DNA of 62,283 nt, the filler included, from Basidiobolus ranarum (taxonomy: Eukaryota), in NCBI GenBank assembly GCA_040143965.1. It is 29 parts of 29 records of this genome, joined end to end, with 100 filler letters (N's around TTAATTAATTAA, not from the genome) between each part and the next. Parts side by side here need not be neighbours in the genome. Positions count along the whole stretch, not along the records: positions 28,047 to 30,097 come from JASJQH010003857.1; 28 more parts are not named here. One strand, 5' to 3'. Numbering within the stretch: position 1 is the first letter of the stretch; the number at the start of each line of letters is the position of its first letter. A program made the translations under genes and the position numbers. Shown here piece after piece: positions 10,811 to 51,143 of the stretch. Under the pieces are notes generated by a model. It was given only the letters and a program-made list of their open reading frames with translations. It was not told where the DNA came from and did not search any database.

Positions 10811-11554
10811 CGGCGGCTGACCCGGCCGATACCAGCAGACGACGAATCGGGCAACCATCTGGCGGGAATTATCAGAAACGGAGAATATGGCTCTGGGGCC
10901 GGCGATGGCATCTATTTGAATGGCAATACCAGTTACATCTTCCTGACCGTACCTTCTCAAACCTCGGCCAGACAACTGACAGTAAGCTGGTGGATGAAGA
11001 CGTCCAGCAAGTTGGAGGGCAGAATGGCGATGGTGGCGCATACAGACAGCGGCAGAGTATGCGTAACCACACATCTACTCCAAAAGAAAGAATTGTCATT
11101 GAAGGTCAACACATTAATTAGAGGTGATGACTGGGCCTGGAAGAGTGAAGAAAGGCTGCAGGTTAGACCCTCACCCTACGTTATAGACGAAGACTATCAT
11201 CACTATGCTCTTGTCATTGATCAAAGAGAGACAGCACAGAAAAGGGGCGAGCCACCCATCACTCTTTACATGGATGGACGCATTGCTTCCAGTAACTCTG
11301 ATTGGGATTTCCCCAATAAGTTGGGATCAACTCTGCGCGGTGTCTGGTTTGGATCTGTTGAACCACTCAATAGCCACTACCAAAACCCTTGGGACAATAG
11401 CGTCAATCTTGAAGGCCATTATCGTGACATTCGCATATGGGACAAAGGTCTGAGCGCTCGAGATATATTTGAGATGTTTAAAAAATCAAGAACATCAGCA
11501 ATGCGCACAGAGAAGGTTGAGAGCAAAAAGAAAGAGGCTACAAAGATCAAATAA
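10811..11554 (+). CDS. Concanavalin A-like lectin/LamG domain protein, 5' partial
   Basis: Frame is open from the contig edge: DESGNHLAG...GIYLNGNTSYI...TVSWWMK...YHHYALV...LYMDG...GHYRDIRIWDKGLS, typical LamG_3 motifs; CpG-retaining and intact. Confidence 0.8.
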   Translation, partial: RRLTRPIPADDESGNHLAGIIRNGEYGSGAGDGIYLNGNTSYIFLTVPSQTSARQLTVSWWMKTSSKLEGRMAMVAHTDSGRVCVTTHLLQKKELSLKVNTLIRGDDWAWKSEERLQVRPSPYVIDEDYHHYALVIDQRETAQKRGEPPITLYMDGRIASSNSDWDFPNKLGSTLRGVWFGSVEPLNSHYQNPWDNSVNLEGHYRDIRIWDKGLSARDIFEMFKKSRTSAMRTEKVESKKKEATKIK

Positions 11555-25794: not shown

Positions 25795-28270
25795 NNNNNN
25801 NNNNNNNNNNNNNNNNNNNNNNNNNNNNNNNNNNNNNNTTAATTAATTAANNNNNNNNNNNNNNNNNNNNNNNNNNNNNNNNNNNNNNNNNNNNATAAGG
25901 AGCTGTTTGGCAAGGACTCAAGGCAGAGATAATGCAGTGGTAAGAACTGCTTGCAAACTATAAAATATATGATGTAAAAAGTTAATGGGTTTGAAGCCAC
26001 TGAAATATACTCTATCCAGTGATAACACTGGCTGGCATTGAACAGAAGATAGGATACTAGGTACCTGATGGTATGGGATGCACCAAAGAGAGAGTTTAAG
26101 CAGCAAAAACACTGCTGCCAAATAACAGAAGATATGGTGTTAGGTGAACAAGTATGCAGGAGATACCCAATGGATCACCTAATGTTTCCTAAAGATCACT
26201 GATAGGTGTTGAAAGGTATGATCACAAAAAAGAATGATTTGGGAAATATTTGCATGAGAATCTTTTCAATAGGAAAAGTACTACTGTGAAGCATGTTTGG
26301 TATGATGCTTAGTAATTGTAGGTATATGACTAGCTAAAAATAGATTGTATTCAGTGCCAAATACCCCCAGGATGAGCCATTGGTATGCAGCCAAGAAACA
26401 TTGATTATTGCAAACTTTAAAAGCAGAGACTCAAAAGTCATGAAGTAAGGTAAAAAATGATAGGGCTATGCTTTCAATATGCAGTTTGTGAGTCTAATAT
26501 GGTTATTCATCTCAATATAAAATTTGGTACATTCACCATTAGGGAAGTCAATACAGATATGTTCTCAATAGTTGTGTAAGCAACATAAAGAAAGCAACAG
26601 TTGCTAATTAGTCCAGAGTTGATCATTAGTTCTTAGTAGATCCTCTATGTGAAGCTTTTACATTATTTTGGGCAAGGGGTGAAACTCCAATTAGCAGTGG
26701 TAAACCAGAACCTGATGGATTTTGCTTTGTTGACAATACTAATATGTAACCTGTAAACACTTGGAGGAGAGTTGCTTGAGAGTTGTTCAGGGTATGTGGA
26801 CAAGAAACAATTAGTATGTAAGATGCTTGAAATGCAATATTAAATTTTAAAATTGTTAGGCATAGTAGTTAGCTAATTCATATACTGTTTAGATTGTACT
26901 GAGTTTTCACACTCTACATGAGTGTTTATTTTTCTAATTAATAGATATGGTAATGAGATCATCTCAACTAACTTTCACCATAGGAATACATCCTCCTGAT
27001 ATAATCTTGAAGGTTCATAAATGGTTTATATATTGGAATATACTTAGGTAGTTAATGAGATTGCTATTTTTGTTAGTATTAATGCTCATCACAGCTTATT
27101 AGAAGGATCAACCAATCACCAAGATCTTAACTGGTGCTATACTTAGGTATGATTTCAACATATGTCTTAGGAAGTGATGAGTCATTATTTTGAGTCTCAG
27201 CCGCAGTTGCTTTGTGCTGTATGAACTGGTGATCAGATGATGGGTCATCTGCTCATCAGCCCATCTGTTCACTGGATGAAAGAATATTAGTATATACAGG
27301 GCTTCTCACACCTTTAGAGCAAATATTTTATCCACAGTAAAATTCCATTACTACACTATCATTCCATTACCACTGTTCATCCACCCTTATCCAATATTAA
27401 AGGTATGATTGTTATTATCTAAATTCATCTATTAATCTTATTTCCTATTAAACCATAGGTTAGTGATGTTCAGTGGAATGAATTTAAAGTCTGTGATTCA
27501 AGATTCTAATTCATGCCCAAAAACTCACAAGCTCCAAACAGTTTTATCTTTACCTTGAAAATAATATACTTTCAGAGAAAACATGTATACTGAAATGAAG
27601 ATTTACGTGCTGATATGTGACATTGCCAAACTTCTTGATAAATGATAGACCTGAAGTTAGAATATAAGATAGAAGATAATTGCAGAAGCACTTCAGAAGT
27701 ACCTAAGAACAGAGTTAAGTAAGACCTGAAAACTACCTGCCAAAGCCAAAGTAGGTGATGCTATGAAGCCTCCAGTGTGGCAATCACTTAATACAAAGTC
27801 TTTGAAGTGTAAAGCATCACTGGTGAGAAATGAGAGGTATAATACCAAGGAGCAATCAATATGGGTGATACATAATGCAAAGTCAACAAATGAGAAAGAC
27901 TAATCAACAACTACATTTGCTACAAATTGTGCAGATAGGGAACAACNNNNNNNNNNNNNNNNNNNNNNNNNNNNNNNNNNNNNNNNNNNNTTAATTAATT
28001 AANNNNNNNNNNNNNNNNNNNNNNNNNNNNNNNNNNNNNNNNNNNNAGTTCTTACCTCATCATTCAGATTATGTAAAATAGCATCTTTAGGTAGTTTGGT
28101 ATGTCTTAGATTAGATATCCCAGATCAGACGATCAACAAGTATGTCGAGAAAATTATAGTTTGTAATAGGGATATGCGATCATGTAAAACTTGACGCGTT
28201 GATCATTCATGCATAACACATCTCCAAAACCATTCCTCGATCGTGGATATCGAGATTTAGGATGTGTGCA

Positions 28271-28300
28271 GGTGCGGGTGCGGGTGTGAGTATATTTATT
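28271..28300 (+). promoter_or_regulatory. Putative TATA-like box with upstream GGTGCG repeat
   Basis: GGTGCGGGTGCGGGTGTGAG then TATATTTATT (28291-28300), about 150 nt before the ATG and followed by a pyrimidine-rich leader. Confidence 0.45.
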
Positions 28301-28449
28301 CAGCCCTTCTCACTCAAGCATCCGACAACTACTACCTTTTCTTTATCCTACGGTTAGAACTCACTTGACTCTGTTGACCCTCTTGTACAAGCCATTTTCA
28401 CCAACCACACTTGTCATTAACCACTGCGCTTATTGACCATTCTACCACC

Positions 28450-29604
28450 ATGGAACACCTTCAGGAAAGAGTAAGCCATTATTTTGAAACTCGAACTGAG
28501 GGTGGAAACGGAATCTTTAGAGATTACATCCACGCCGAGAGCTCGTCAGTGAAGATCTTTGTGTTTGATAATGACTACTTTAACATTTCAAACCACAAAC
28601 ATGCCATAGACAGTCAAATCCATGACTTGCAGCAGTATTCTAATGACTTGATTGCTTCATCTGCCTATATGTCTGAAGATAATGTACATGCTCAGTTGGA
28701 GGCTGATTTTGCCTCTCATTTCGGGAAAGAATGCGTGCTAACACAATCAGGCTACGCTGCGAATACTGGACTAATACAGGCCATATGCTCACATGAAACA
28801 CATGTGTATATTGACAAGCTCACTCATGCGTCATTTTGGGATGGTCTTTACTCCAGAGGCACTCAAACTCATGTCTTTGCACATAATGACATGGTGGATC
28901 TGGAAAACAAAATCATCAAACACGGCCCAGGCATAATAATCGTTGATAGCTTGTACAGTGGCCATGGCTCATTTTCTCCAATCAAAGCCCTGGTTCAACT
29001 CAAGTTAAAGCACAAATGTATCCTTGTTGTCGATGAATCACATACACTGGGAGTGTACAGCAAGACTGGCCTCGTGGACTTGATGGGATATAACGAGACT
29101 GTTGACTATATAACAGCTAGTCTAGCAAAGGCATATTGCACAAGGGCTGGGGTTATCATGGGTCCACACTCACAATTTATCAAAGAGAAGTCCATGCATT
29201 ATGTGTTTAGTTCTGCTCTCATGAGAAACGACATTATCAAACTACGTGCAATGTTTGAAGTCATCAAAGGAGCAGATCAGAAGAGGAATAGATTAATGCG
29301 AGCATCCAACGCGTTAAGAAAGGCTCTGTTGAAAATTGTAGATGTCGAAGACACTCCAATACCATCACCAATTATATGCATTCCTACTAAATCCGAGGCT
29401 GAGATGGTAAAACTTCACCATCATTTTGTATCCAAAGGGATATTTGCGGCACCATTTTTCTTTCCCGCAACACCCAGAAAATCACCTAACCTGAGAGTGA
29501 CACTTCACTCTGAGATTACAGTAAACGATATACGAACCATTACAAACGCAACCGCTTCTTTTTTTCAGCGTTCAAATTCTGTTGTATTCTCTTCCAAACT
29601 TTAA
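28450..29604 (+). CDS. CqsA/LqsA-like PLP-dependent acyl-CoA aminotransferase (alpha-oxoamine synthase family), 384 aa, with C-terminal PTS1 -SKL
   Basis: Motifs NDYF, QSGYAANTGLIQAIC, VYIDKLTHASFWDG, FAHND, HGPGIIIVDSLYS, VDESHTLG, TASLAK (PLP Lys), RAG, FSSAL, PAT follow V. cholerae CqsA as I recall it; ATG in ACCACCATGG context (the ORF track TTG start is unlikely); no introns. Confidence 0.88.
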   Translation: MEHLQERVSHYFETRTEGGNGIFRDYIHAESSSVKIFVFDNDYFNISNHKHAIDSQIHDLQQYSNDLIASSAYMSEDNVHAQLEADFASHFGKECVLTQSGYAANTGLIQAICSHETHVYIDKLTHASFWDGLYSRGTQTHVFAHNDMVDLENKIIKHGPGIIIVDSLYSGHGSFSPIKALVQLKLKHKCILVVDESHTLGVYSKTGLVDLMGYNETVDYITASLAKAYCTRAGVIMGPHSQFIKEKSMHYVFSSALMRNDIIKLRAMFEVIKGADQKRNRLMRASNALRKALLKIVDVEDTPIPSPIICIPTKSEAEMVKLHHHFVSKGIFAAPFFFPATPRKSPNLRVTLHSEITVNDIRTITNATASFFQRSNSVVFSSKL

Positions 29605-30197
29605 GTCTAACATTTACCTTATCCTCTATAACCTACCCAAAGCTATATAAATCACAATAGCGAAGATTTGTTCACTTACCAGTTATGTAATCTGAATTTA
29701 AACTGAATTAGTTACAATTGAGGGGATTTGGTGTGAGATTCACTGTATCACCCTGCTAATAATCTACTAGTTGGCATACGAACTATTCTTCTTTTATTAG
29801 CGTTCAACTTGGGAAGCGGGCTGTACTTCTACCACAGCATATATACTTTAAATGCCCTTTTAGACTTGCGGTTACAAAACATATTTGGATTGGAGATGAG
29901 GAAAATATTTTGACACTTGGCATTACCTGGTTATTTATCACATTAATATGGGTGTAGAAGATACATCCTTTTATTCATCGTTTTTTATAGTTGAGATATT
30001 TCCAAGATCCTGCTGTGGCTTAGTTAAAGAACTTAAGTGGATCCTTGAAAAACTCTTTGCTTGCAATTTCAAGCTTTTGGTATGCTTCTGAAGCTCTNNN
30101 NNNNNNNNNNNNNNNNNNNNNNNNNNNNNNNNNNNNNNNNNTTAATTAATTAANNNNNNNNNNNNNNNNNNNNNNNNNNNNNNNNNNNNNNNNNNNN

Positions 30198-30974
30198 AGC
30201 ACTGTTGAAAGAACGGGTACGAACATTGAACAATATTTCATTGATACCACCGAATTGGTAGGAGTAGAACCAGTTGGAGGAGATAAACAATGGGAGGAGT
30301 AGCAACATATTCTTGCTTGTGAAGAGCTTGAGTATACCAACGATTTCGCCGCCGACATTCTTGAATTTGACTACCTCAACACGAGATCCATCATTACGAA
30401 CAACCTTCTCAGGAGGAACAATACCCAGGCCAAGAAGGGCGCCGATGATCATAAGAACTATGAGGACATAGTATGTGGCAGTACTGACGCTACCCTTGTC
30501 AGAGGAAAAGTTGAAACTGAAAGGAATGAACGAGCCAAGGATGGAACCCATATTGAAGATGATACAGAAAATACCAACAGCACGACCTTTCTGATTTTCA
30601 GATGGATAGGACATCATCACAGTACCTTGTGCAGTCCAAAAGATACCAGCTCCAATACCGAGAATAGCACTCGCAATGATAACGAAGGTTGGTTTCTTGG
30701 TACTGCTGTAGTATACGAGGGAGCCAGAGTAAAGAGCGTATGTAAGGCCACCGCAGACCATGGTCAAACGAGCGCCTAGAATATTGAAGCTAGCACCACC
30801 GAATATACTGAAAATAGCGAAACAAGCATAAAGAGAAAGGTTAGCATTTTTAGCGGTGCTGTCATCCATCTGACCACCAGCACCGAGAGCGGTAATAACG
30901 TTAAACATACCCGGGCAGCAGAGACAAACAAAGCTCACCAGGATAACCTGAACCATTGAGGAGTTAAGTCGCAT
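30198..30974 (-). CDS. UNC-93-like MFS membrane protein, 3' partial
   Basis: QVILVSFVCLCCPGMFN, GAGG, GIGAGIFWTAQG, MSYPSENQKGRA, SNWFYSYQF; first ATG at 30974. Confidence 0.92.
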
Positions 30975-31920
30975 CACGGTAATAAAGCTTGATGTAAGAG
31001 AAGAAAACCAGTTCAAGAAATCTAGGAGTAGAGCGAATTTGACTGAGAACCTTGCTTATTATTTTGTGTGGAATTTTGTGATGGGGGTTTGAGTATACTG
31101 AATTTTCTAGCTATTAAAGAAGAGCAGTTGTATGAAGTGGAAAAAACTCCCCATTTCGAAGTTGTGAGGATATTTATAGTAGCTACTTGTCTTTGGTATA
31201 TTATGTTACTATTATATACTAATTGACAATGAATAATGATGTTTTGTAGAACTCAGATGAACTTGTGTTACAATTATCAGCGACCATATGATATCTCTGG
31301 CAAATTGGAGATGATTTTGTACACTTTGTAATGGAGACGGTTGAAAACAACTTCCCGTAATCGGTTTCAGAATTGCCCTGACTGAACTACAGATGCATAT
31401 TTGCGTTAACGCGTCTGGTGCCAGGCCAATATTTAGTATTGTTCTTAGACAGAGCATTTTAGAAGGATGGTACAGAACGAATTCGAACCATAAATTTGAA
31501 CCTACTTACATAAACCTGATTCAATAGATGATTATCGTCCTTCCCGTCACAGCAGAGTTTCCCCATCCGATGAGAATCCGAAAACCAGACATAAGTGTGA
31601 CTTTGATCAAACAGTGGCCACTGTAATTGGTTGAGATCTTCCGCAATGAATGATGAATATATATTAATGCAATAAACCAAATGAATATGCGTTCAGCTTT
31701 AATATATTGAGCAAGATCAATCAATACTGTGGGGACCAACTGTAGCAATAGAAACGATTATATTAAATCCTTCAGTCGGAGTTGATATCATTTATTAATA
31801 GTTAAGATATTATGATTTACAGATTTAATAAGCAAATCCGTTGATGATCACGATATATTCAAAATCAGGCAACAATAGAGTTACAGAGCACTGCTCGTAA
31901 AACGGGTACTAAAATAGGCT

Positions 31921-32348: not shown

Positions 32349-34398
32349 CATCTATGAAGCCAATATCCACTGATATTATTGTTGATGAGCAGAAACCAAC
32401 AAAACCATGGTTCATCAGCTCTCACCAAATACCAAGCCTTTGCTGATGTCATTGACAAGAAGCAATCTGATATACTCCCAGCTCACCACCCATATGATTG
32501 CCCTATAGATCTACAGCAAGGAAAACAAATACCATTTGACCTATATATGGGCTGACCCAGACAGAGCTCAACATTCTGAAGGAGTACATTGCAGAATAAC
32601 TAGAGAAAGGATTCACCCACCGTTCAAAGTCCCCAGCAGGCTCTCCAATCTTATTTGTTAAGAAAAAAGATGGATCCCTCTGTCTCTGTGTAGATTACCA
32701 AGGCCTAAATAGCATTACAGTCAAAAATTGGTACCCCTTGCCATTAATCAACTCACTCTTGGATCCGCTTGCTTCAGCCAAGGTGTTTACAAAGATTGAT
32801 CTAGGAGGTGCTTACAATCTTGTAAGAATCAAACCGGGAGACCAATGAAAAACTGCCTTACAAACTTGCTATGGACACTTTGAATACAAAGTCATGCCAT
32901 TTGGACTTAACAATGCCCCTGCAGTTTTTCAATGCATGATGAATGACATCTTGAGAGAGTATCTTGATCAGTTTGTGGTAATCTATCTTGACGCTATTTT
33001 GGTCTTCTCAAGCTCTCAAGAAGAACATGATATTCATGTTTCCAAAGCCCAAGAAAAGTTGAAAACCTCTGGGCTCTATGCTAAACTTGAGAAATGTGAA
33101 TTTGATCAAGCTCAAGTTGAATTCCTTGGATATAATATCAGCACATCAGGCATCTCCATGGACCCTAAGAAGGTTGAATCTGTTTTGTCTTGGGATATTC
33201 CCAAGAATGTGAAGGATGTCCAATCTTTCCTTGGATTTGCAAACTTTTACCGATGGTTTGTCAAGAACTACTCCAAAATATCTGCTCCATTAACAAACCT
33301 CACAAAGAAAGAACTCCCATTTGACTGGAACCAATCTTGCCAACAAGCATTTGTAACTTTAAAGAGTGCTTTTACCTCAGCACTAATCCTGGTGCATCCC
33401 AAACTAGACAAACCATTTATTGTTGAAACTGATGCATCAAACCTTGCTCTAGGAGCAGTGCTTTCACAGTTTGATGATGACAACTTACTGCACCCTGTTG
33501 CCTTTTACTTGAGAAAATTCTCTGCTGCAGAAATCAACCATGACATCTATGACAAGGAACTATAAGCAATCATTGCAACATTTGACCAATGGCAACAGTA
33601 CTTGAATGGAGCAAATCACAAAATCAAAGTTTATTGTGATCACAAGATTCTTCACTATTTTAGTACAACCAAAGTTCTCAACCATTGTCAAGTAAGATGG
33701 TCATTATTTCTTGCCAGTTTTGATTTTGTGATTACATATTGATCTGGTAGCCAGCAAGGAAAACCTGATGCCTTATCACATAGAGCAGAATATCAGCCAA
33801 AAGAAGGGGATGAGGCCTTTGGCCAACAAAATACTTCCTTACTGAAGCCCCACCAACTTCAAATTAGTTCAACTGCCCTTTCTCTACCTAGTTCAAGCAC
33901 ATTCCATGTAGATATCCACAAACCTCAATCTGAAGACCCATGTGTAATATCAATCAAGAAAGCCCAGGAAACACCCAAAGACCTCCCAAGCTTGAACTTG
34001 TACTGCCATTTCTCTATCATCAATGATCTCTTGTTTTATACAAAGCACCTTTATATTCCAGACCACACTTCTAGCCTCAAAATCATGCAGGAAAGACATG
34101 ACTCACCACTAGCTGGACACTTTGGTGTTGCCAAATCATATATGTTTGCATCCAGGGATTATTGGTGGCACAAAATGTTTGGATTTGTTAAGACTTATGT
34201 TTCCACCTGTGATACTTGTACTCAAGTGAAGACTCTAAGACATCAGCCCTATGGCCTCCTACAGCTACTTCCAATTCATGATCAGCGGTGGAAATCCATA
34301 TCCCTGGATTTCATAACTGATTTACCCATGTCTGCCAAATATGATTCAATTCTGGTAATTGTTGACCATCTAACAAAGATGGCCCACTTTGTGCCCTG
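32349..34398 (+). mobile_element. Ty3/gypsy pol (RT-RNase H-integrase), degenerate
   Basis: [22 protein letters not shown] (mutated YLDD), ETDAS, YDKEL, HDSPLAGHFG, ISLDFITDLP. Confidence 0.95.
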
Positions 34399-34697
34399 NN
34401 NNNNNNNNNNNNNNNNNNNNNNNNNNNNNNNNNNNNNNNNNNTTAATTAATTAANNNNNNNNNNNNNNNNNNNNNNNNNNNNNNNNNNNNNNNNNNNNTG
34501 TTTCACCTTGCAATATCTATACAACCCCCATGTATTCCTTGATCAGACCTCATTCTGATCAACACCAGTTTTCAATAAAGTTTCTTGCCTAAGTATCTTC
34601 CCTCTCCAGTATTGTCTTGTGGTCTACACCCAAGTACTCTCCTGCCTTCTAGCCTCTTGTCATTGTTTCCGGTCCTTGTCCAGTTACTTGTGTGACA

Positions 34698-48687: not shown

Positions 48688-49521
48688 GACTCAACTGAAG
48701 CAATTATACTAACGCTCACATTTATTTGAAGGGGATTGATTTGAATGGATTTTAGTTATTCAATCCAACCAAAATTTAGGAATCTCTCCAATTTCTTGGT
48801 TCTTGTACATTCCAGAATGTGAATTTGATGTTAAATATTTTACGCATCACCATTTACCAAAGTAACGAGAATGGTTTTGTGTGATTGGATCAATTATATT
48901 GACTGTTAGTATCGCTAGTTAAATAATTGTTGATTGGATATGAGGCAACGAAGTTGTATCAAATAAAATTTAAAGTATAAAAAAGATGTTATTGCTACGC
49001 TGTCCGTAATCTCCTATAGAATGAGATTTAAAGCTTGTGTTGCTAACAGGTTTGAATGTATATTTGCCCTACACAATCAAAGAAAATAGTGCTGATGACA
49101 CCTCTGTTTAATAAAGGAATTTCGAGTTAAGTTGAGCAATATTTATGCCATAGTGCAAATTAGTAATACATTCTGTCAATATCTCTAATTGATTTGTTAA
49201 GGATGTACATGATTTTCTACTGAGATATCCTTACTTTGAGAGTATGAAGGCGTGTTGCTAAGCTATAGATTCGCAATGTTACTTTTACTATATAGAGCTT
49301 AGAAACAAACATATTTGTTGGATAATTAATCTTTATTCAACATCATAGTTAACTTTAGTTATGATACATATATCAGAAACAGAAAGCAACGTATCTATAG
49401 CCCCTATATTCTAAATAGGAANNNNNNNNNNNNNNNNNNNNNNNNNNNNNNNNNNNNNNNNNNNNTTAATTAATTAANNNNNNNNNNNNNNNNNNNNNNN
49501 NNNNNNNNNNNNNNNNNNNNN

Positions 49522-51143
49522 ACCAAGATTGCTGCACTTCATGGATCCACTCCATTCTCACTTATGTTTGGAAGAATATACAACCAACTACGGAACTATC
49601 AAGATGTTCTACTCAAGCAAATTAACACTGGAGACTTAGTCAAATGCCTTCAATTTCTAACAGATATAGTCTACCCTGGAATCAACTCAAGAAGCAAAAG
49701 TAGTCAACAGAAGATGATATCCAAGCACACTTCTAGGCACAAGACCACTAGTTTTCCTGAAGGTTCTTTTGTCATGACTTTAGATCCCATCTGCCAATCC
49801 AAACTTGATCCCAAGTATGAAGGTCCCTTCAAGATTATCAGAAGAACCACTGGAGGATCTTATGTACTTCAAGACAACACTGGAGCCTTACTACCCAAGA
49901 ACTTTCCACTGTCTTCCCTTAAACTTATTTTACAAGATCCAATATCTACAGAATCATATGAAGTAGAAGCCATAGTCAATCATGATGGTGAAGAACTCAA
50001 CTGCCTTTACTTAGTGAAGTGGAAAGGTTATGATGCCAAAAACAATACCTGGGAGCCCTATAGCCACTTTGATGATATCTCTATCATTGACCAATATTGA
50101 AAACACAGAGGATCACCTGCTAAGAATAGTCCTCATCCAGGGAGGGAATGATGTTGTGCATCAACATATAAAGTTGTTTAACCTACACCATATCTATACA
50201 ACTTGCTTGAATATCTATTTAGTTTATCATCATTGCTAACTAATCATCTGACCTGATCCAGTGACCCTATCATTTGACTTATTGTTGGATAATTAATCTT
50301 TATTCAACATCATAGTTAACTTTAGTTATGATACATATATGAGAAACAGAAAGCAATGTATCTATAGCCCCTATATTCTAAATAGGAATATCTCTATATC
50401 TATATAACAAGTATGTCTATTACCCCCACTTATCTATTATATCTTATTACACAAACCATATACTCTTGAGAATAAAGTAACTAAAACACACTATCATAAG
50501 TTGCTTCTAATACTCAAAGTCTACCCCCATTATGTCAAGATCCTCCAACACTTATCACATGACTTACTATATATTCTGTTATCCCTTCTATCAGATCATA
50601 TGACCAATCACATGATCATTATCCAATGAGTATTAACCTCTGAGTCATCTGCCTAGACACAAGTCAATATAAGTCACAAGATTTGTAACCAATGATCTTT
50701 CACTGCCAAGACTTCAGCTGATGCATGACTCACTTCTCTATCTATCCATCAATCCAATCACATTATCTTTTATCAGAATTAGTCATCTAATATCTTGGCA
50801 TTGACTAATTCACTTTGCTATCAAAAAGTATAAATAAAGCCAACTGAACCTTTTGGTATAGTGTATATCTTGACAAATATAGGATCTCAACATTTCTCAG
50901 TATTCCTCTCATTTCTATCCAAGCCTAGTATCCACTAGCATCTACAGAGCACTAAGCCTAGCTGCCTAGCAAACCTACTCTCTACTGTAACACAGCACCC
51001 CACTGCTATTCCCATGACATATATTAGTTAGATCTGCTCTGCTGATATATCCTGCCTAAACAGTTATCAGATGCTCCACTTAACTGTTTCTTTGATTCAG
51101 TAAAGTTCAAGACTTTTTATCCATTTTTCTCTTGGACACAACA
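49522..51143 (+). mobile_element. Chromovirus gypsy 3' end: integrase GPF, chromodomain, PPT and LTR (50152-51143)
   Basis: KLDPKYEGPFKI; YEVEAIVNH...YLVKWKGY...TWEP; PPT GGGAGGGAATGA; LTR ends TGTTGTG...CACAACA. Confidence 0.9.
50283..50550 (+). repeat. Solo LTR family B with TSD CTTAT, inside the gypsy LTR
   Basis: CTTAT|TGTTGG...CCAACA|CTTAT. Confidence 0.93.

Follow-up and report, generated by a model that had tools for sequence, protein, structure and literature searches.

Gene and reading frame

We analysed a 62,283-nucleotide stretch of DNA from the fungus Basidiobolus ranarum (the window; GenBank assembly GCA_040143965.1, positions counted along the whole stretch) and within it a gene for a putative peroxisomal enzyme, here called P0001, that resembles the bacterial autoinducer synthases CqsA and LqsA and ends in the tripeptide Ser-Lys-Leu (SKL). 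The open reading frame (ORF) is intronless, comprises 384 codons from the ATG at 28450 to a TAA stop, and lies in the longest stop-to-stop frame of the window (408 codons, with nine frames reaching at least 200). Direct reading of the sequence just 5′ of ATG 28450 finds no purine-rich Shine-Dalgarno stretch, and the start context ACCACCATGG is presumably suited to eukaryotic initiation. A start at the upstream TTG (28411) was dropped; homologs align with the protein over its whole length from Met1, which is the ATG at 28450.

The final codons, TCT GTT GTA TTC TCT TCC AAA CTT TAA, translate to SVVFSSKL followed by a stop, confirming the original prediction that the ORF ends in SKL (29593–29601), with the TAA following immediately. 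The interval given in that prediction, 29575–29604, covers N376 to L384 and the stop, and falls one codon short of the peptide string quoted with it, a trivial discrepancy. The tripeptide matches [SAC][KRH][LM] and the stop comes directly after it, so that its designation as a canonical type 1 peroxisomal targeting signal (PTS1) stands. The gene, its contig and the features discussed below are collected in Table 1.

Table 1. Positions of the P0001 gene, its contig and its features in the window
Feature	Position	Strand	Description
Contig carrying the gene	28047..30097		2051 bp, GC 0.395, N44-TTAATTAATTAA-N44 linker on either side
Coding sequence, CqsA/LqsA-type pyridoxal phosphate (PLP)-dependent alpha-oxoamine synthase (P0001)	28450..29604	+	ORF translation, PF00155, NF005526, CqsA 2wk8
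Start context ACCACCATGG	28444..28453	+	A at -3, G at +4; direct reading
PLP-lysine codon AAG, Lys227 in TASLAK	29128..29130	+	aligned to V. cholerae CqsA Lys236
C-terminal tail, residues 377-384, SVVFSSKL	29578..29601	+	predicted disordered/exposed, predicted local distance difference test (pLDDT) score <50
Putative PTS1 tripeptide Ser-Lys-Leu, TCC AAA CTT	29593..29601	+	sequence and clade conservation
Stop codon TAA	29602..29604	+	directly after SKL

P0001 is a CqsA/LqsA-type alpha-oxoamine synthase

P0001 matches the Pfam family PF00155 with an E value of 5e-23, and its top NCBIfam model is NF005526 (alpha-hydroxyketone (AHK)-type quorum-sensing autoinducer synthase) at 324 bits, BioF coming second at 196 bits. 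The NF005526 alignment pairs residues 4–376 of the 384 with profile positions 25–400 of 407. With the BioF model itself, TIGR00858, the 196 bits do not reach the cut-off of 426, and BioF-type rows form the outgroup in our trees. NF005526 is likewise the best model in all ten of the other PTS1-bearing clade members that were scored (283–356 bits, vs 151–219 for BioF). Solved structures give a matching order, with Vibrio cholerae CqsA (2wk8) at the top (E 2.4e-55), followed by 5-aminolevulinate synthase (E 1.6e-30) and Escherichia coli BioF (E 1.3e-20). The nearest predicted structures in the ESM Atlas are bacterial AHK-synthase clusters (template modelling score 0.93); the Atlas returned only bacterial clusters, and it confirms the enzyme family while being silent on its eukaryotic range. 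Best profile, best structure and tree placement (below) support the original prediction in that the enzyme is CqsA/LqsA-like.

The sequence also looks like that of an intact enzyme, with the catalytic residues present. Lys227, in the motif TASLAK, aligns with CqsA Lys236 (chain numbering counted by hand), which is the PLP-binding lysine according to excerpts of PMC3376566, and all 20 aligned clade members share H126, D195, H198, K227 and R349 without exception. The AlphaFold2 model of P0001 has a mean pLDDT of 90.6 and a predicted template modelling score of 0.89. P0001 thus shares with V. cholerae CqsA and Legionella pneumophila LqsA the alpha-oxoamine synthase fold, the aligned PLP lysine and the DESH and TASLAK motifs, although it is only about one third identical to V. 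cholerae CqsA and its host is a eukaryote.

Eukaryotic relatives and a Legionella-like sister group

A word-indexed protein search returned 123 proteins at E ≤0.001 among 2176 candidates. The closest relatives are eukaryotic, at 42–51% identity, and include Mortierella, Gongronella, Orbilia, Conoideocrella, Aspergillus cavernicola, other Aspergillus, Podila and Dactylellina; a further one has a cluster mate from Umbelopsis isabellina. Bdelloid rotifers (Adineta) are ∼37% identical, and bacterial CqsA/LqsA-type proteins mostly 32–38%. Two further searches extended this set: Mortierella alpina, Neoconidiobolus thromboides and others came from a profile search across 1.84 billion representatives, and Drechslerella dactyloides from one seeded with P0124, a basal clade member described below. 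Several of the fungal homologs sit on contigs of 0.9–2.7 Mb, so that the family genuinely belongs to eukaryotic genomes. Its distribution in named fungi is patchy, comprising a few Aspergillus, Orbiliaceae, one Hypocreales species and several early-diverging fungi.

The top match of the profile search, P0121 (802 aa), was rejected as a clade member, being only 34% identical to P0001; it is a bacterial-type protein with two alpha-oxoamine synthase domains in tandem. The same search also brought up P0139 (1195 aa), a bacterial-type fusion of an MMPL transporter with a synthase.

We built trees of 70 and 84 rows, both rooted on BioF/Kbl-type rows. P0001 falls within a 30-row clade in the smaller tree (Shimodaira-Hasegawa-like approximate likelihood ratio test (SH-aLRT) support 99), nested among bacterial CqsA/LqsA-type rows. 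The matching clade of the larger tree has 36 rows (SH-aLRT 99), of which 32 make up a eukaryote-type part with a support of 93, placed beside Legionella-like sequences. The four remaining, basal rows look bacterial (P0124, P0125, P0022 and P0024): P0124, which branches first of all in the clade, is labelled as a gammaproteobacterial metagenome-assembled genome (MAG), and P0125 shares 69% identity with a protein of Legionella jamestowniensis. As far as these trees can tell, the sister group of the eukaryote-type clade is Legionella-like Gammaproteobacteria. In the resulting picture, eukaryotes putatively received the gene from Legionella-like Gammaproteobacteria and then passed it on vertically, perhaps with some spread from eukaryote to eukaryote as well.

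The targeting signal is concentrated in the eukaryotic branch

If the terminal tripeptide of P0001 serves peroxisomal import, then it should be kept among the eukaryotic homologs and be missing from the bacterial ones. We scored the canonical PTS1 as [SAC][KRH][LM] at the C-terminus (both this and the relaxed formula used below are given in excerpts of PMC12316961) and sorted 368 family proteins into types by their best BLAST match to the tree rows. Canonical ends occur in 21 of the 47 eukaryote-type proteins, two of these 21 being near-duplicates of others (95% and 98% identity), as opposed to 1/8 Legionella-like basal proteins (P0124, SRL) and 1/313 other bacterial-type proteins (P0322, AKM). 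The comparison of 21/47 with the pooled bacterial-type 2/321 gives a Fisher p of 3e-19, a value that overstates independence as the rows are related. The bacterial rate of ∼0.6% equals the chance expectation for such an end. As a control set we used 80 metagenome loci (≤38% identical, nearly all bacterial-type and one rotifer-like), and here none of the 79 ORFs whose 3′ end is complete terminates in [SAC][KRH][LM]. These counts bear out the proposal of a PTS1 that is retained in eukaryotic homologs and missing from bacterial ones.

The tree mirrors this distribution. All 17 rows with a canonical end in the 84-row tree lie inside the 36-row clade, 16 of them in its eukaryote-type part, while none of the 48 rows outside that clade ends in [SAC][KRH][LM]. 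The tripeptide itself varies within the consensus, being SKL in Mortierella alpina and Neoconidiobolus thromboides, AKL in Umbelopsis isabellina and Aspergillus cavernicola, and ARL in Orbilia brochopaga and Drechslerella dactyloides.

One family member, P0008, a gene call from a Joint Genome Institute (JGI) metagenome, has SKL where its relatives end and then continues for eight residues, VRKRSMTC. This overrun could mean that the stop was lost, that the sequence contains an error, or that a gene caller for prokaryotes ran on into non-coding DNA.

The rotifer homologs form a separate case. They fall inside the eukaryote-type clade, where their sister rows are P0130 (ending SKL) and P0143 (ending AKL), yet the rotifer-type proteins themselves carry no PTS1, ending for example in ...TFLKH. 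An extra Arg-rich N-terminus of ∼45 residues, such as MFRHVYNRVRFN..., is present in four of the seven (P0027, P0030, P0036 and P0157); P0043 has another leader and P0031 and P0039 have none. The N-terminal extension may be a presequence for another compartment.

The bacterial tail appears replaced rather than extended

The SKL of P0001 had been described as sitting on a short tail beyond the conserved fold, and this description does not hold. The stretch that follows the invariant Arg349 measures 35 residues in P0001, compared with a median of 42 (range 23–74) in bacterial-type and of 33 in eukaryote-type proteins, and the NF005526 profile aligns as far as residue 376. As bacterial tails are equally long or longer, the PTS1 is not on an added extension. 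Bacterial-type proteins often end in a basic W-x-W-P-x-A-R-R-like tail, in place of which the P0001 lineage has a linker and the PTS1. The comparison of ends thus suggests that the bacterial tail was replaced rather than extended in the eukaryotic lineage. The span from the Arg to the C-terminus varies from 27 to 56 residues among PTS1 bearers, and their linkers cannot be aligned. A linker that drifts while the end stays SKL, AKL or ARL fits selection on the terminal tripeptide itself.

Residues 377–384 have pLDDT values below 50 in a model whose mean is 90.6, consistent with a C-terminus that is predicted to be free and flexible. PTS1 function is favoured when no acidic residues stand just upstream of the tripeptide, and the last 12 residues of P0001, QRSNSVVFSSKL, contain neither D nor E.

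Observations that weigh against a peroxisomal CqsA/LqsA equivalent

Several of our observations speak against reading P0001 as a peroxisome-imported synthase of the CqsA/LqsA kind, and they concern its function, its targeting signal, the trees and the contig. On the side of function, the 324 bits of P0001 lie below the NF005526 equivalog cut-off of 428, as do the scores of the ten other PTS1-bearing clade members (283–356 bits), so that an equivalence of function to CqsA/LqsA is not supported by the NCBI equivalog criterion. On the side of targeting, 26 of the 47 eukaryote-type proteins are without a canonical PTS1: the seven rotifer-type proteins, 11 short or flagged partial models, and eight full-length proteins. 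The eight full-length exceptions end in NKL (twice, one of them Gongronella), SSL, ASL, LAQ, MTC, ALI and TSV. Five non-canonical ends (NKL twice, SSL, and ASL twice) fit the relaxed consensus given in excerpts of PMC12316961. On the 84-row tree the PTS1 state requires at least 11 parsimony changes, and the tag must therefore have been repeatedly lost or be hidden by faulty gene models. Furthermore, the SRL end of the basal protein P0124 (3.4-kb contig, labelled as a gammaproteobacterial MAG) agrees with the PTS1 consensus; either a bacterium matches it by chance here or a eukaryotic contig has been mis-binned. A shared ending in the closest bacterial homologs, which would count against the original prediction, is touched on by this one of the eight Legionella-like proteins, but chance alone would yield as much. 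Both trees were made with a 'quick' search, in which starred branches are less reliable, the support of 93 for the 32-row clade being unstarred. Finally, the 2051-bp contig at 28047–30097 consists of this single gene and nothing else, so that it shows no CqsS/LqsS partner sensor.

Alternative explanations

The exceptions just listed bear on the possibility that SKL is not a working signal at all, but is buried, masked or a neutral relic in an enzyme that is cytosolic. The eight full-length eukaryote-type members and the rotifer group that lack the canonical tripeptide would then mark lineages in which it is dispensable. The canonical end is nevertheless found in 21/47 eukaryote-type vs 2/321 bacterial-type proteins, it varies only within the consensus while the linker drifts, the tail that carries it is predicted to be disordered, and the five exceptions named above meet the relaxed formula (PMC12316961, in excerpt). 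We therefore consider a non-functional SKL improbable. P0001 is, in our estimation, likely to be a peroxisomal protein.

A peroxisomal location leaves room for other products. P0001 might be a synthase of KAPA (7-keto-8-aminopelargonic acid), a BioF analogue serving biotin synthesis that is peroxisomal because pimeloyl-CoA is made there. Fungal and plant BioF proteins are indeed alpha-oxoamine synthases with a conserved, functional PTS1 (excerpts of PMC3713238), and BioF, at 196 bits, is the second-best NCBIfam match of P0001. The CqsA/LqsA model, however, scores 100–160 bits higher than BioF in P0001 and in 10 of 10 clade members, and the clade is nested in CqsA/LqsA-type rows in both trees, with the BioF/Kbl-type rows as outgroup. 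Moreover, the gene is patchy among named fungi, and Aspergillus already has a canonical BioF (PMC3713238, in excerpt); the gene therefore looks accessory and not like a core biotin gene. We regard a role as KAPA synthase as quite unlikely. Somewhat less unlikely, though still against our expectation, is that P0001 works in the peroxisome in another specialised-metabolite pathway, providing an aminoketone for, e.g., a sphingoid-like, pyrrole or alkaloid product unrelated to AHK signals. The scores under the CqsA equivalog cut-off are compatible with this, as is the patchy taxonomic spread, which is typical of accessory metabolism, and peroxisomal enzymes of siderophore synthesis (SidI, SidH and SidF) are known in fungi according to the abstract of PMC3709128. 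No result of ours contradicts such a pathway, though in the phylogeny the clade falls within the AHK-synthase-type proteins.

Composition of the window and origin of the contig

The window is made of 29 unplaced contigs of 2042–2063 bp, ordered by falling length and joined by 28 N44-TTAATTAATTAA-N44 linkers, and gene adjacency across the linkers is meaningless because of this construction. The GC content of the pieces is 0.323–0.404, that of the gene contig being 0.395, and the GC content at third codon positions (GC3) is 0.40 for the P0001 gene and 0.28–0.51 for the other ORFs of the window.

These figures matter for the possibility that the contig is foreign to B. ranarum and entered the assembly by contamination, with another eukaryote a likelier source than a bacterium. 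In favour of this, it is an unplaced ∼2-kb piece, among 29 such pieces, without a second gene, and its closest homolog is just 51% identical, giving no tie to a near relative. Its GC of 0.395 and GC3 of 0.40, on the other hand, lie inside the ranges of the window, its nearest relatives come from fungi, and the gene product has a PTS1, a feature of eukaryotes, and no bacterial-type C-terminal tail. A foreign contig is thus very improbable in our estimation, and another fungal source would not change the reading of the gene. Bacterial contamination in particular, which the original prediction had argued against on the grounds of the targeting signal, is unlikely, since the nearest relatives are fungal (42–51% identity, on contigs of 0.9–2.7 Mb) and GC3 is within the range of the window.

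Other pieces of the window carry Ty3/gypsy fragments at 32849–34450 (+) and 49474–50100 (+), with reverse transcriptase and RNase H, the zinc-binding domain of an integrase, and a chromodomain accompanied by a Tf2-like SH3. A fragment of an UNC-93/major facilitator superfamily (MFS; DUF895-type) membrane protein at 30198–31016 (–) is cut by a contig end; its best named match is from Coemansia (54% identity), followed by Pyronema, Podila and dermatophytes. These matches place the assembly among the fungi, and its lineage is probably an early-diverging one. A 247-aa open frame at 10811–11551 (+) contains a concanavalin A-like / Laminin_G_3 domain (E 1.4e-07).

Discussion

Taken as a whole, we think it probable that P0001 is a fungal synthase of the CqsA/LqsA branch, of Legionella-like bacterial ancestry, that is imported into peroxisomes via its PTS1 and condenses acyl-CoA there. 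The P0001 lineage would descend from a bacterial gene of this branch, with the bacterial C-terminal tail giving way in the eukaryotic lineage to a short, variable linker and a PTS1 (SKL, or AKL and ARL in relatives). Pex5 would recognise the folded, PLP-loaded enzyme through its free, flexible C-terminus and bring it into the peroxisome matrix. Once inside, the enzyme could carry out a Claisen-type condensation of an amino donor with acyl-CoA from beta-oxidation, the donor being an amino acid or, as in CqsA, S-adenosylmethionine (SAM). This would yield an alpha-aminoketone, and maturation of the latter could give a small molecule resembling an alpha-hydroxyketone.

The acyl-CoA substrates assumed for CqsA in the original prediction agree with excerpts of PMC3376566, which give octanoyl- or decanoyl-CoA (C8/C10) with SAM or 2-aminobutyrate. 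That P0001 likewise makes an AHK-type or related aminoketone from medium-chain acyl-CoA is a suggestion we put forward tentatively, and somewhat against the odds. The earlier interpretation, in which the enzyme was rerouted after transfer to its substrate pool, is partly supported: the targeting is well supported in silico, and the 'autoinducer-like pathway' is inferred. The most general form of this idea, a Legionella-like, LqsA/CqsA-derived synthase present in several fungal phyla and some other eukaryote-type sources, retargeted to peroxisomes and converting beta-oxidation intermediates there to autoinducer-class aminoketones or hydroxyketones, with the rotifers using another compartment, is in our view doubtful.

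A close known parallel is BioF, whose PTS1, according to excerpts of PMC3713238, carries it into the peroxisomes of fungi and plants, a location needed for its function; the earlier statement that fungal BioF is peroxisomal accords with this. Fungal and plant BioF belong to the same superfamily as P0001 and are acyl-CoA-consuming alpha-oxoamine synthases with a C-terminal PTS1 address (PMC3713238, in excerpt). They differ in representing another branch, the BioF/Kbl rows being the outgroup and P0001 scoring 196 bits on BioF vs 324 on NF005526, and fungal BioF differs further in that the P0001 family is patchy in fungi rather than general. P0001 would combine a CqsA/LqsA-branch synthase with a BioF-style peroxisomal address, both parts being of known kinds. 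A search of the full-text literature found no paper on eukaryotic or peroxisomal CqsA/LqsA homologs, subscription journals and supplements (including that of the 1,010-genome PTS1 survey PMC12316961) lying outside its scope.

CAI-1, LAI-1 and other signals of the alpha-hydroxyketone class are regarded as a language of bacteria. If our reading of P0001 is true, a transferred bacterial enzyme has been wired into an organelle beside its acyl-CoA supply, which is the same wiring as that of BioF. On the more general idea, which we hold to be doubtful, AHK-type signals would also have a source in a eukaryotic organelle. Such molecules could serve fungal self-signalling or interfere with bacterial Cqs/Lqs quorum sensing. 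The gene would also point to a new fungal pathway for small molecules in the peroxisome, which might communicate with, or disrupt, the quorum sensing of bacteria.

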